From: Escherichia phage vB_EcoM_112
DNA length: 64,000 nucleotides
Sequence record: NC_024125.2
Direction: 5' to 3' (one strand)
Shown here one piece after another: positions 2,190-6,014 of this stretch; within the stretch, counting starts at the first letter, position 1; every line of letters starts with the position of its first letter. Position numbers and translations under genes: made by a program. The notes below the pieces were generated by a model. That model did no database searches. It was not told the origin of the DNA and saw only the letters and a list, made by a program, of their open reading frames with translations.

Positions 2190-2393
2190 TTAATTCATAT
2201 TACGCTTAATAACTTCAGCAACTTCTAGTAGTTCATCTTTAGTTGCGGTGTCGGATTGAATTTTATCTCTAATATCTTTAAAGCGGTTTTTAAATTCTTC
2301 GGCTTCTCCCATATCGAAAAAGCGTTGAATGATTCTATATTCTCGATGAACTGCTTTATCAAAAAGTTCTAAATTTACTTTATATGATTTCAT
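2190..2393 (-). CDS. hypothetical 67-aa protein (position of T4 rIIA.1)
   Basis: ORF immediately upstream of rIIA, ATG verified at 2391-2393; early promoter just upstream. Confidence 0.6.
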
Positions 2394-2447
2394 TTCAATA
2401 TCCTCATTTGCCCAATTAATTATACCACATCCTTGTGGTAAAGTAAA

Positions 2448-2980
2448 CTACTGGCTCATCCATTCTTTACGAAGGTCAGCGTTATCTCCCATGAGCATTT
2501 CAAAAAGCTCTTTCCAGTTCTCAGGAAGTTTAACAACATCATATACTGGATTTTGAATCATCTCACGATATTCAGATTTTTCCAAAGAGCCAAGTCCTTT
2601 AATATAACGGATGCTATGTTTAGGTAGAGCATCTTTGGCACTCTCATATTCAGCGACTGTATAAAACCATTCTTGTTTTTTACCGACCTGAGCGATGATT
2701 ACAGGAGTTTTGACAAAACGAATTCGTCCTTGCTCAAACAATTCTGGCCAATTACTAAAAAATCCGAGCAGAGAAGGATAAATAGAACCTAATCCAATAA
2801 TCTCTTAATTATGAGGTATTTCTATAGATAGCCCGAAGGCTATCCATCGTGATCTGCGTCTGTCATAATAGCGACATTCGCATAGTTCATTGAAGAGGAT
2901 TTAATAGAACGACGAACATTGTTCTGCAATTTATATTTTTTCATATCAACGCTAGAAGAATCAATTTTTACAAATTTCAT
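2448..2980 (-). CDS. 60: DNA topoisomerase II subunit gp60, translated by programmed bypass of a 50-nt coding gap; segments 2843..2980 and 2448..2792
   Basis: 46 codons MKFVKIDSS...DADHDG end at take-off GGA (2843-2845) followed by UAG (2840-2842); reading resumes after landing GGA (2793-2795) as LGSIYPSLLGFF...; 46+114=160 aa. Confidence 0.9.
2793..2845 (-). other. gene 60 translational bypass element: take-off GGA, UAG stop, CUUCGG hairpin (2827-2844), 50-nt untranslated gap, landing GGA
   Basis: Matched GGA codons exactly 50 nt apart; stem GAUAGCC/GGCUAUC with UUCG loop spans the take-off codon; nascent peptide KKYKLQNNVRRSIKSSS precedes it. Confidence 0.85.
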
Positions 2981-3779
2981 TATACACCTCATAGAACTTT
3001 TCATCAGGAATCCAACCGCGTTTAAATTCATTAAATGCTCGGCCGAATAATTTTGAATTCACAGTTATATTATTAACTGATTTCCATTTAGCAACTCCCG
3101 TTCGTTTATAATGATCGGGGTCATATTTCGTGACGTACCATTCATATAAATTTGGTATTAATTTTACAGCCTCTGGATTTGTCGCTGATTTATTATACCA
3201 TGGTTTCGCTTTTTCAAGTTCAGCTGCTTTTGCAGTAGCAGCAACAGTATTTCCAATACCAACTAATTTTTCAGCTTTAATGCGTGGATCATTAACATGA
3301 AGACGAAAAACTTCGCCTTTTTCATTTTTAAAGCATGTCATGCCTTTAATTCCAGGAAGCTTAACACCTTTATTAACACCGCACCATTCCTTTGGGTTAA
3401 ATGATCCTTTAATTAATAAGGCGCATTTACCCGATTTAATACTTCTCATTAAAACTTTATCTTTCATAAAGTTTTTTGACCATTCAGATACTGCTCTTTG
3501 ATGGTAAATTCTAGCAATTTCATATAATTTACTAGAACGTAAATATTTTTCAGTGTTTAACATTCTATTCATCGCATATGCCATTTCACGATTACGATGA
3601 ATTTTATATAGTAGAAAATGTGCTAAAAAGTGTTCACGAAAAGTCAGTTTCACCAAATTTTCTTTATCATCAGAACCTCCCATTGATCTTGGAAGGATAT
3701 GATGAATTTCACCCTTAAATTTAGAAACGCGGGTTTTACCCCGCACTATTAAGTCATTATAGATTTTTTCGTAATTCAC
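2961..3779 (-). CDS. mobA: HNH homing endonuclease MobA, 272 aa as tracked
   Basis: HNH motif HHILPRSMGGSDDKENLVKLTFREHFLAH; sits between gene 39 and gene 60 and overlaps both; first codon is GTG with no in-frame ATG nearby. Confidence 0.75.
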   Translation of the reverse strand: MNYEKIYNDLIVRGKTRVSKFKGEIHHILPRSMGGSDDKENLVKLTFREHFLAHFLLYKIHRNREMAYAMNRMLNTEKYLRSSKLYEIARIYHQRAVSEWSKNFMKDKVLMRSIKSGKCALLIKGSFNPKEWCGVNKGVKLPGIKGMTCFKNEKGEVFRLHVNDPRIKAEKLVGIGNTVAATAKAAELEKAKPWYNKSATNPEAVKLIPNLYEWYVTKYDPDHYKRTGVAKWKSVNNITVNSKLFGRAFNEFKRGWIPDEKFYEVYNEICKN

Positions 3780-5307
3780 CTACTGTTATCCATTTACCAT
3801 TAATCTGTACTTCATCATTTTCATTTACGATAATTGTATCGCCATTTAGTTCGAAAGTAAACCACTCGCCATCTTCTTTTTCTTCAAACGCCTTTTCACC
3901 AAGAACTAGACCAGTGATTGCGCAAATATCAAATAGTTCTTTGTTTTTAAGCATATCGGCATATGACATACCCCAGCTATTAAGAACTTTACCGCGCAAT
4001 GGATAACCACCATGAAGTTCTTTATCACGAACATCAATAAGATATCCGATAGCAGAATCACCCTCAGTCAAGAACAATGTAGTATCAGCATCTTTACCAC
4101 AAAGATTCGCTTTAATATGTTTATGAACCTTAGCTTTAGAAGCCTTTTTAGCTGCTTTAGTTTCTGCTGCCTTTTCCGCCGCCAATTTACGAGCTAGTGC
4201 AGCTTCAATAATCGGCATTAAAATTGCTTCATTATTTAGAATAGCGCGTGAAATCTTTTTAGCATCAAGTTGAATATGACTACGAATTTCGCCAAATGGA
4301 GAAGTCAAACGCTCTTTAGTTTGAGAATCAAATCGCATGTTTTTCATATCACGAACAAACATAACGATAGTCAAACATTCTTTAACCCGTGCTTTAGTTA
4401 CATCAATTTTGAACTTACGTTTGATTTGTGGAATAAGGTCTTCACAAATATCATCCATAACACAGTCAATGTGATGGCCACCATTCTTAGTATGAATGTT
4501 ATTCACATAAGTTAATTGACGAAAACCATCCGGTGAACGACCAACTGCAATAGAACAATTTTCTTGTTCTTGAACGATAGCATGCTCATCATATTGGCGT
4601 GCATATTTCTTAAAATTACCCTGAACCTTTTTACCATTAAAGGTAAATTGAATATCAGGATAAACAACAGCAAGTGTCTGGAGACGATCTAGTGTAATGT
4701 CAAGATAAACTTGGGACAGCTCATTAGTTTCAAATGACATAAAATCAGGAATGAAAGTAACGCGAGTTCCTTTCCATTTTCCAGGAATATCTTCCCATGA
4801 TTTATTTTCCATGCCATTTGAACAACGAACTACAATATTATTTTGACCATCACCAGTTTCACCAACAAACATCACAGAAAAAATGTTAGTTAAACTAGAA
4901 CCAACACCGTTCATACCGCCAGTGACGCGTTCTTTATCATCACCGAAGTTACCACCTGCTTTTGGAATAGTCCATGCAGCAACAGGACCAGGAATTTCTT
5001 CACCAGTAGGTGTTTTAACCATAGCCTGTGGAATACCACGACCGTTATCTTCAACTGTTACCTGATTATTTTTAATAGTAACATTAATTTTATTTGCGAA
5101 TTTAAACTTAGTACGAATACCTTCATCTACTGAGTTATCGATAATTTCATCAATAAGCTTAACAAGACCAGGTACATACTGAACACTTTCCCATTTACCA
5201 AACAGAAAGCGCTCATGCATTTCATTAGCAGAAGAGCCAATATACATGCCGCTACGCTTTTTGATATGTTCAATATCGCTCAGAATTTTAATTTCATTCT
5301 TAATCAT
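3757..5307 (-). CDS. 39: DNA topoisomerase II large (ATPase, GyrB-like) subunit gp39, 516 aa
   Basis: 516 aa from ATG at 5305-5307 (tracked start 5310 is GTG); GHKL ATPase motifs (EIIDNSVDE, GLVKLIDE); synteny. Confidence 0.9.
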   Translation of the reverse strand: MIKNEIKILSDIEHIKKRSGMYIGSSANEMHERFLFGKWESVQYVPGLVKLIDEIIDNSVDEGIRTKFKFANKINVTIKNNQVTVEDNGRGIPQAMVKTPTGEEIPGPVAAWTIPKAGGNFGDDKERVTGGMNGVGSSLTNIFSVMFVGETGDGQNNIVVRCSNGMENKSWEDIPGKWKGTRVTFIPDFMSFETNELSQVYLDITLDRLQTLAVVYPDIQFTFNGKKVQGNFKKYARQYDEHAIVQEQENCSIAVGRSPDGFRQLTYVNNIHTKNGGHHIDCVMDDICEDLIPQIKRKFKIDVTKARVKECLTIVMFVRDMKNMRFDSQTKERLTSPFGEIRSHIQLDAKKISRAILNNEAILMPIIEAALARKLAAEKAAETKAAKKASKAKVHKHIKANLCGKDADTTLFLTEGDSAIGYLIDVRDKELHGGYPLRGKVLNSWGMSYADMLKNKELFDICAITGLVLGEKAFEEKEDGEWFTFELNGDTIIVNENDEVQINGKWITVGELRKNL

Positions 5308-5359
5308 CACTTATCCTCGTTTGGTTTCGGGAATATTATACTCCAATAATCATAAAGCT

Positions 5360-5377
5360 AAAGGCCCGAAGGCCTTT
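5360..5377 (-). terminator. CUUCGG tetraloop hairpin immediately after the stop of the lipoprotein ORF
   Basis: Plus strand AAAGGCC-CGAA-GGCCTTT; transcript loop UUCG; overlaps stop at 5377-5379. Confidence 0.5.
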
Positions 5378-5637
5378 TATTTAAAACGAATAGTCGAATC
5401 CTTGAAGAATAGTCCAGAACATACTGTTCCTTCTACTTTCTGTCCAGTAGGTCCAATAGCACGAAATCCAGTATGCTGGAAATCATTTTCAGAGCAACCG
5501 AACCAATTGTATCCAGTGATTTCAATATTAGTAAAACCGCTTGAAGACAAAACTTTGGTTGCATTATCAGCATCAGTACATCCTATTAAAGACACTGCTA
5601 ATACTAATGCTGCAATAGAACGATTAACATATTTCAT
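5377..5637 (-). CDS. small lipoprotein (signal peptide, lipobox LIGC), about 86 aa
   Basis: Hydrophobic N-terminus ending LIGC; ATG at 5635-5637 (tracked start 5646 is GTG). Confidence 0.55.
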   Translation of the reverse strand: MKYVNRSIAALVLAVSLIGCTDADNATKVLSSSGFTNIEITGYNWFGCSENDFQHTGFRAIGPTGQKVEGTVCSGLFFKDSTIRFK

Positions 5638-5642
5638 AATTT

Positions 5643-6014
5643 TCACTTAAATTTAATGGCTTGAAGAAGACTAATAACTCTCAAGCGACTTCTTTCATCT
5701 TTAACTGTAAAAGAAAGAGGGTCACCAGACTTCATAGTAATAGTGCATTCAAAATCAAAATCTTCGGAAACTTCTTTGAAGAAGTCAAATTCTTCATCAT
5801 AAATTAAAACTTCACTCCGAAGACTGTGAAGAATTTTTCCGTCATTTCCAGATGCTGTACTAATCATTGTAACATTATTACCTTTCATATCTTCAACGAT
5901 AAATTCGCTTGTAGATATTACAGCATTAATAGAACCATTCCTATAAATAGCAGAAAATAGATATTTCTTTTCTTCACCTTCGCGAATGCGATATTTCTTA
6001 CCGATTTTAAACAT
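5643..6014 (-). CDS. hypothetical protein, 123 aa
   Basis: ATG verified at 6012-6014; no motif recognised. Confidence 0.6.
   Translation of the reverse strand: MFKIGKKYRIREGEEKKYLFSAIYRNGSINAVISTSEFIVEDMKGNNVTMISTASGNDGKILHSLRSEVLIYDEEFDFFKEVSEDFDFECTITMKSGDPLSFTVKDERSRLRVISLLQAIKFK

Follow-up and report, generated by a model that had tools for sequence, protein, structure and literature searches.

The MobA mobile element of Escherichia phage vB_EcoM_112 and the probable translation of its homing endonuclease from a GTG codon overlapping gene 39

The window analysed here, a stretch of 64,000 nucleotides from Escherichia phage vB_EcoM_112 (NC_024125.2), harbors a homing endonuclease gene, mobA, wedged between genes 39 and 60, which together make up a split gene for the topoisomerase II large subunit. 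All features of this 39/mobA/60 region lie on the minus strand, and positions given below are those of the window. Gene 39 (5307..3757) encodes 516 aa from an ATG start located behind a GAGGA motif. Its product combines a GHKL ATPase and a GyrB transducer (Pfam HATPase_c and DNA_gyraseB) and terminates with the residues GELRKNL followed by a TAA stop at 3759..3757. The mobA open reading frame (ORF; 2961..3779), assigned to an HNH homing (nicking) endonuclease on the basis of the ORF itself, PHROG 655 and orthology with phage T4T, comprises 272 codons and a TGA stop (2963..2961). Its first codon is a GTG (3779..3777) and, because an in-frame TAG (3782..3780) directly abuts this GTG on the 5' side, the ORF has no room for a 5' extension. 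At its upstream end, mobA occupies the +1 frame relative to gene 39 and overlaps it by 23 nt, stop included; at its downstream end, it overlaps by 20 nt gene 60, whose ATG at 2980 is preceded by a good Shine-Dalgarno (SD) sequence (GAGGTG). Gene 60 is read as two segments, with 46 codons (2843..2980) ending at a take-off GGA codon, then a gap of 50 untranslated nt (2793..2842), read directly here and labelled as bypass region in the T4 and T4T records, and finally 114 codons plus a stop (2448..2792) for the TOPRIM C-terminal part of the topoisomerase large subunit (Pfam TOPRIM_C and DNA_gyraseB_C). Joining the two segments yields a gp60 of 160 aa. These coordinates confirm the original prediction, made from the sequence alone, that an HNH ORF of 272 aa overlaps gene 39 by 23 nt and gene 60 by 20 nt. 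The interval then delimited, 2448-3779, corresponds to mobA plus the whole of gene 60; it omits the 5' part of the mobile element (the gp39 tail) and takes in the parental 3' part of gene 60, the mobile element itself being located at 3894..2784.

The identity of the endonuclease is supported by several lines of comparison. MobA differs from its T4T counterpart by a single residue over 272 aa and matches PHROG 655 ('homing endonuclease') with an E value of 2.5e-57, which justifies the name mobA initially proposed for this ORF. Tblastn analyses revealed protein identities of 99.3-99.6% with about 37 other records. The Pfam HNH profile is matched at E = 7e-4, with a score of 20.1 bits that falls slightly under the gathering cutoff of 21.4. 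The HNH catalytic motif spans MobA residues 23-50 (GEIHHILPRSMGGSDDKENLVKLTFREH; 3630..3713) and can be aligned residue by residue with the HNH motif of a group II intron maturase structure (6me0). Searching the PDB sequences with MobA matched this short motif only and returned no close solved structure, and a tblastn search of the 64-kb window for Mob paralogues returned mobA alone. The T4T record (HM137666) displays an 819-nt mobA annotated as 'homing endonuclease' with the same overlaps with genes 39 and 60, the latter being described as a two-piece join with a 50-nt 'non-coding translational bypass region'. At a larger scale, the 3.1 kb at positions 2300-5400 match 553 phage records, mostly Tequatrovirus, with 97.2-98.3% identity over the full length to T4, T4T, RB55/59, HY01, BF15 and others. 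The window is Tequatrovirus, and we estimate at roughly 93% the probability that this locus corresponds to the MobA mobile element known from T4-type phages.

The limits of this element were mapped by aligning the window with the fused '60plus39' gene of phage RB32. At this locus, RB32 is annotated with a single, uninterrupted gene whose flanks are 96-98% identical to those of the window and whose length is 1042 nt shorter. The alignment shows a clean break at 3894/3895 and a return to identity at 2783, which delineates a MobA mobile element of ~1111 nt (2784..3894) replacing 69 nt of the uninterrupted gene, with a net gain of 1042 nt. On the upstream side, codons 1-471 of gene 39 (3895..5307) represent the parental N-terminal part of the topoisomerase II large subunit, as indicated by the ORF, its Pfam domains and its collinearity with the fused RB32 gene up to 3895. 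The element then encodes a C-terminal extension (CTE) of gp39 of ~44 aa (3757..3894) that is not found in RB32. Past mobA, the first segment of gene 60 consists of an element-encoded N-terminal extension (NTE) and a replacement homology region. There, a 45-nt stretch (2889..2846) is ~71% identical to RB32 and corresponds to the element's own copy of its target. After the 50-nt gap, 9 further diverged nt follow the landing codon. The uninterrupted RB32 target contains TGAATTATCATAATATTGCTATTATGACTGATGCTGACCATGATGGTCTAGG.

This organization fits the plan published for the 'MobA element', in which a diverged homology region and the bypass come after CTE, MobA and NTE, and mobA overlaps both of its neighbors out of frame. 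In that preprint (Manning & Atkins 2022, bioRxiv 10.1101/2022.08.31.505936), the element has a size of 1097-1106 nt, with a gp39 CTE of ~44 aa, MobA, a gp60 NTE, a homology region and the bypass, plus 9 extra nt in clade 1. Most of the 553 matching records, as judged from a sample, have an uninterrupted gene, and the whole query is covered by only 40 of the 553. In the sampled cassette-less records, 64% of the query is covered in two pieces that span 2059 nt, versus 3101 in the window. The proposal that a cassette made of an endonuclease and a bypass element split an ancestral 39-60 fusion, together with the suggestion that it be checked against relatives with a fused gene 39, is thus borne out by RB32, whose fused gene provides the insertion boundaries 3894 and 2784, and by most sampled records, which also show an uninterrupted '60plus39'. 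A ~1.1-kb cassette has accordingly replaced 69 nt in the TOPRIM-coding part of a formerly continuous topoisomerase II large-subunit gene. It contributes the C-terminal tail and stop of gene 39, MobA, and the start and N-terminal tail of gene 60, as well as a diverged copy of the replaced target and a 50-nt bypassed insert with its take-off GGA, UAG and landing GGA.

The gene 60 bypass signals are all recognizable in the window. The take-off GGA (2845..2843) is followed by a UAG stop (2842..2840), and the landing GGA is found at 2795..2793, leaving a gap of exactly 50 nt (2842..2793; UAGCCUUCGGGCUAUCUAUAGAAAUACCUCAUAAUUAAGAGAUUAUUGGA). The take-off stem-loop, with its UUCG loop and a stem at 2847..2824, has a predicted stability of -14.7 kcal/mol (z = -4.7), and a GAG mini-SD occurs six nt 5' of the landing GGA (AAGAGAUUAUUGGA). 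The stimulatory nascent peptide KYKLQNNVRRSIKSSS is present in the first segment of gene 60. A stretch of 196 nt covering NTE and gap is 100% identical to T4, for which bypass of gene 60 at about 50% efficiency was experimentally shown, according to reviews and a preprint. Based on this identity, ribosomes would be expected to bypass the gap in gene 60 of the window with a similar efficiency of about 50%.

The element and its surroundings differ markedly in their degree of conservation. The element is 99.6% identical to that of T4T, as compared with 95.9% for the flanking gene 39, and differences from T4T and BF15 amount to 0-2 per 200 nt in the element versus 3-12 in flanking gene 39. The upstream gene 39 of the window is nearer to that of the cassette-less RB32 than to that of T4T. 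A conserved element within diverged flanks is what a recent transfer between diverged backgrounds should produce, and such a movement is suggested here. Relatives having the mobA insertion without a bypass element, a situation that would speak against the original prediction, were looked for, and the number of records with NTE and bypass at a minimum of 97% identity (40) was found to be equal to the number of Tequatrovirus-type records with the full cassette (40/553); mobA and the bypass co-occur in every case. The bypass region was also matched in orthologue-bearing phages of Salmonella, Proteus and Shewanella. MobA orthologues occupy the same genomic site in six phage clades, including Salmonella S16-type, Proteus, Acinetobacter, Shewanella and Aeromonas phages, and the element anatomy of six clades is given by Manning & Atkins (2022).

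As related in later summaries of Bonocora, Zeng, Abel & Shub (2011 PNAS), MobA was found to be active on the uninterrupted T2 gene, in which it introduces a nick, mixed infection transfers the whole mobA region, and the 50-nt insert shields the carrier from MobA. The MobA of the window may well share the site-specific nicking and high-frequency inheritance reported for T4-type MobA, as suggested by an element that is far more conserved than its flanks. In a mixed infection, MobA would nick the uninterrupted gene of a cassette-less phage and repair would copy the cassette in, while the 50-nt insert would guard the carrier against MobA without harming the protein.

Two other sites provide a glimpse of the plasticity of this region. 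Upstream of gene 39.1, positions 5600..5700 of the window (minus strand) show 22-23 differences per 82 aligned nt, plus indels, when compared with T4T and BF15, and are identical to RB32. The backbone there is RB32-like and not T4-like, and the genome is therefore mosaic. In phage CJY920 (PQ349265.1), a 914-nt insertion is found near the 3' end of gene 60, after a point equivalent to window coordinate ~2485. This insertion encodes a second Mob-family HNH endonuclease (MNYRKIY...; MNYRKIYDKLIAAAKNR...HHILPKSMGGSNAKSNLVKMTPREH...) and a replacement gp60 C-terminus, DPELRKDWMLG*. In CJY920, a single topoisomerase gene would then bear two homing-endonuclease cassettes.

The start of mobA is unusual. 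The original prediction pointed to a GTG first codon with a weak ribosome-binding site (RBS), and pairing energies agree with this description: the best anti-SD duplex before the GTG is a 3-bp GGA (-3.1 kcal/mol) positioned 8 nt upstream, whereas the SD pairing of four neighbor genes (gene 39, gene 60, rIIA.1 and rIIA) ranges from -5.9 to -6.9 kcal/mol. The companion statement that no in-frame ATG is nearby is true in a functional sense, the first one being codon 33 (3683..3681), inside the HNH motif and 3' of His26/His27. Among the MobA homologues retrieved, 31 of 35 begin with M(N/D/Q)Y, mostly MNYxKIYxxLI, and this N-terminus is aligned to the GTG codon. The homologous start codon is an ATG in S16, fHyAci03, Stupor, AS-gz and the metagenomic lineages P0003, P0007 and P0008, and a GTG in the T4 clade, Pm5461, Thanatos-1, P0004 and P0005. 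We consider it highly probable that MobA starts at the GTG at 3779. Edgell, Gibb & Belfort (2010) describe mobA as 'the lone exception', with a predicted GUG start and a 23-bp overlap with the upstream ORF. Neighboring codons were also considered as starts and rejected. The ATC at codon 6 is located 12 nt after AGGUGA (-4.2 kcal/mol), yet it is a very poor initiator and its use would cut the conserved MNYxKIY; the GTG at codon 12 has no SD (+0.7 kcal/mol) and would cut the same motif.

The route by which this GTG is reached by ribosomes was regarded as unclear in the original prediction. This view has to be nuanced, since a GUG start, the 23-bp overlap and a reinitiation or scanning model are already set out by Edgell, Gibb & Belfort (2010), but it holds in that this is still only a model. 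In their description, mobA is a promoter-less cassette that uses upstream T4 promoters, and its translation probably relies on ribosomes 'scanning' no further than about seven codons from the upstream stop, leading to low endonuclease levels. Scanning positions 2300-5500 for sigma-70 promoters and terminators gave 8 promoter-like sites versus 12.5 expected and no terminator in mobA, in keeping with a cassette that lacks a promoter. The gene 39 TAA follows the GTG at a distance of 20 nt (about 7 codons), and the overlap between the gene 39 stop and the mobA start is kept in 11 of 12 lineages with a frame relation that varies. Two layouts are recurrent: an ATGA or GTGA stop-start overlap, and a +1-frame GTG with an overlap of 14-23 nt, as illustrated by the Proteus-type 'VSELL*' and the T4-type 'VGELRKNL*'. 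In all six clade representatives that were tested, SD pairing is weak (+0.1 to -4.1 kcal/mol). Since the overlap is conserved and the frame relation is not, termination-reinitiation coupling is favored over a frameshift fusion, and coupling is, on balance, the probable main route of MobA translation. In the absence of a promoter of its own and with only a weak SD, MobA would most likely be produced in small amounts from the gene 39 transcript, with ribosomes ending gene 39 at the TAA, 20 nt downstream of the GTG, reinitiating by translational coupling or scanning. Low expression is typical of phage homing endonucleases.

Several points weigh against an intact MobA translated from this GTG by coupling. 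In the literature searched, which covers Bonocora et al. (2011) through summaries, neither the N-terminus of MobA nor initiation at the GTG nor coupling is shown. With 20 nt between them, the GTG and the stop are at the limit of the distance over which reinitiation would operate according to Adhin & van Duin, whose model, as quoted, was framed for AUG. In addition, mobA of the metagenomic lineage P0008 is provided with an SD and does not overlap the upstream ORF, so coupling is not universal. Initiation at the GTG might instead be independent of gene 39 and poor in SD, the 30S subunit and protein S1 binding directly to an unstructured, AU-rich start region. The first ~33 nt after the GTG are indeed very AU-rich (GUGAAUUACGAAAAAAUCUAUAAUGACUUAAUA) and the start region, folded from -70 to +60 relative to the GTG, shows no significant structure (z = -1.5); the 3-nt GGA situated 8 nt upstream of the GTG and initiation in P0008 without an overlapping upstream ORF point in the same direction. 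Such a route is nevertheless rather unlikely, considering that mobA has an SD pairing far weaker than its neighbor genes and that the stop/start overlap with gene 39 is found in 11 of 12 lineages despite their differing frames, a persistence which argues that the overlap itself is selected. Finally, the T4 reference (AF158101/NC_000866) annotates a 'MobA homing endonuclease pseudogene' and an ORF 60.1. In Manning & Atkins (2022), laboratory T4, KARL-1 and Aes012 are listed as pseudogenised and the endonuclease is dispensable after insertion, and a non-ATG start with a weak SD would suit a decaying, untranslated remnant in a locus where the split gene and the bypass alone are important. For the window, this interpretation is very unlikely: mobA is intact, with 272 codons, a complete HNH motif and a product nearly identical (99.3-99.6%) to that of about 37 other records, and independent clades with intact ORFs also have a GTG at this codon. 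When compared with window positions 3647..3440, AF158101.6 displays 11 scattered single-base insertions, mostly G, and a few substitutions. These 11 insertions are not present in T4T, the window or, as judged by match length, other T4 records, and the 'mobA pseudogene + 60.1' of the T4 reference resembles a legacy sequencing error rather than decay.

An alternative view of the N-terminus places the real start of MobA at the in-frame ATG of codon 33, or makes MobA part of a gp39-MobA fusion produced by a +1 shift on the A6 run (CGA AAA AAT) that precedes the gene 39 stop. The ATG at 3683 is the sole one in frame in the mobA 5' region, and an internal ATG was chosen as start by some annotators of related genomes (AS-gz, LG358). 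For the fusion, mobA is in the required frame, +1 with respect to gene 39, and the 20 nt that separate the upstream TAG from the stop of gene 39 include six A's. However, a protein initiated at codon 33 would lack both the MNYxKIY N-terminus shared by the family and His26/His27 from the HNH motif, and no SD precedes this ATG (-0.7 kcal/mol), which falls within the loop of the most stable local hairpin. As for the frameshift layout, it is not conserved: mobA is in the other frame, and the overlap is ATGA/GTGA, in the S16, Acinetobacter, Aeromonas and Shewanella clades, and the A-run is missing from Pm5461. The +1 fusion was rejected because neither the frame relation nor the A-run is kept across clades, and this alternative view as a whole is scarcely credible. 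Initiation at the GTG, with coupling to the termination of gene 39, remains our preferred reading for the window.

Two relatives illustrate other fates of mobA. In phage UoN_LG358_1 (OK570374.1), positions 896-920 reveal an 11-nt deletion, as compared with S16, right after the mobA ATG (…ATGAATTATAG/AAAAACTAATTTCC…). This deletion frameshifts the MobA N-terminus, and the record annotates only an internal-ATG remnant of 237 aa; mobA of LG358_1 is probably a pseudogene that still has its bypass region. In P0008 (L017, contig ERR11637140_487621), positions -36..-1 contain an AAAGGUG SD inside a CCAGCA...UGCUGG hairpin (-17.3 kcal/mol). This structure resembles the RBS-sequestering hairpins of I-TevI and Aeh1 mobE and represents a different regulatory solution in the same family. 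For the T4 clade, an I-TevI-style RBS-sequestering hairpin is unsupported, the fold around the GTG reported above being not significant.

RNA folding of the region, using sliding 40-nt windows over 1.9 kb and testing stability against synonymous-codon permutations (same protein) and shuffles, drew attention to the 5' coding region of mobA. A stable hairpin occurs within its first ~115 nt in 9 of 12 lineages, with a sequence that varies and a similar place; no such hairpin was found in the folds of S16, P0005 and P0008. In most representatives, the two most stable structures are the take-off stem-loop and a hairpin within +20..+115 of mobA. The T4-clade hairpin of the window (3705..3666, minus strand; +75..+114 of mobA; -16.0 kcal/mol) is the top 40-nt window in the 1.9 kb. 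Its counterparts are found at +38..+60 in Pm5461 (-16.7 kcal/mol), +31..+60 in fHyAci03 (-16.7 kcal/mol), +25..+64 in AS-gz (-20.1 kcal/mol), +41..+76 in Thanatos-1 (-21.9 kcal/mol) and +59..+98 in Stupor (-19.0 kcal/mol). In the numbering of the comparison sequences, hairpins are located at L005:938-960, L006:931-960, L007:959-998, L008:941-976 and L009:925-964, and at +72, +40 and +58 in L013, L014 and L016, respectively. Equally stable synonymous permutations were rare (6/300 for the window, 0/300 for Pm5461, 2/300 for fHyAci03, 1/300 for AS-gz, 7/300 for Thanatos-1 and 1/300 for Stupor; 2/200, 0/200 and 5/200 for metagenomic lineages). In the T4-clade hairpin, CCUUCC pairs with GGGAGG and the first in-frame AUG lies in the loop. 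Its signal is modest, with a z score of about -2.5 versus shuffles, and the HH...GGSDD motif itself predisposes to pairing. Stems reach 10-13 bp in Pm5461 and Thanatos-1, their sequences differ between clades with one compensatory pair (fHyAci03 versus AS-gz), and most hairpins are devoid of a U-tract.

Whether this hairpin is a selected regulatory device that throttles MobA, conserved in place and not in sequence, is possible but doubtful. By analogy with mobE and segF, it may act through transcription attenuation, or it may control initiation or early elongation at a coupled, SD-less start. The T4-clade hairpin, with an anti-SD-like CCUUCC and the first internal AUG enclosed, could also suppress spurious internal initiation. 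A second, small GC hairpin (GCGGG-GUAAAA-CCCGC followed by GUUUCU; 3729..3744, minus strand; +36..+51 of mobA; -11 kcal/mol, z = -2.7) recalls the internal terminators of mobE and segF and, by this analogy, might be a weak terminator. The accessible texts of Manning & Atkins (2022) and Edgell, Gibb & Belfort (2010) make no mention of a hairpin in the mobA 5' region. An Rfam scan of positions 2300-4100 produced a chance-level match only, on the opposite strand (23.5 bits versus a gathering score of 86), and the G50 'terminator' feature considered for mobA was rejected since it is located upstream of gene 39.

The closest known system is the MobA/gene 60 cassette of T4 (Bonocora 2011; clade 1 of Manning & Atkins 2022), which has the same gene order, overlaps, element size, CTE/NTE/homology layout and extra 9 nt. 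The T4 background differs by ~4% in gene 39 and the T4 reference mobA has 11 extra bases; otherwise, nothing of substance separates it from the window. MobE, which is associated with nrdA/nrdB in T4 and also found in Aeromonas phage Aeh1, is, like MobA, a free-standing HNH homing endonuclease with an MNYxKIY N-terminus that nicks its target, and it belongs to the same family. The start of mobE overlaps the upstream stop (UAAUGA), which suggests coupling, just as mobA overlaps gene 39. In Aeh1, mobE splits its host gene nrdA and adds assembly tails to both halves, in the way that mobA splits the topoisomerase gene. The 5' coding region of both genes contains an RNA structure: an internal terminator in mobE, and in mobA hairpins that might or might not terminate transcription, most being without a U-tract. 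In contrast to mobA, mobE has a different target gene, no bypass insert, and an AUG start with a 1-nt overlap instead of a GUG with a 23-nt overlap. I-HmuI and I-HmuII of Bacillus phages are HNH nicking homing endonucleases that, as MobA, promote homing from a single-strand nick. They are intron-encoded whereas MobA is free-standing, and the comparison with the I-HmuI structure was by sequence alone, with no significant PDB sequence match.

The observation and its interpretation are already in print (Bonocora 2011; Manning & Atkins 2022; Edgell, Gibb & Belfort 2010). Added here are the element boundaries (3894..2784), the cross-clade comparison of start codons, the conservation contrast between element and flanks, and the linkage of mobA with the bypass. 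For annotation purposes, the 272-codon, GTG-initiated ORF should be used for mobA, and neither the internal ATG nor the old 'pseudogene + 60.1' model of the T4 reference. No new biology is involved: the cassette exemplifies, in textbook fashion, how a selfish element reshapes an essential gene, with a split, assembly tails and a 50-nt ribosome hop.

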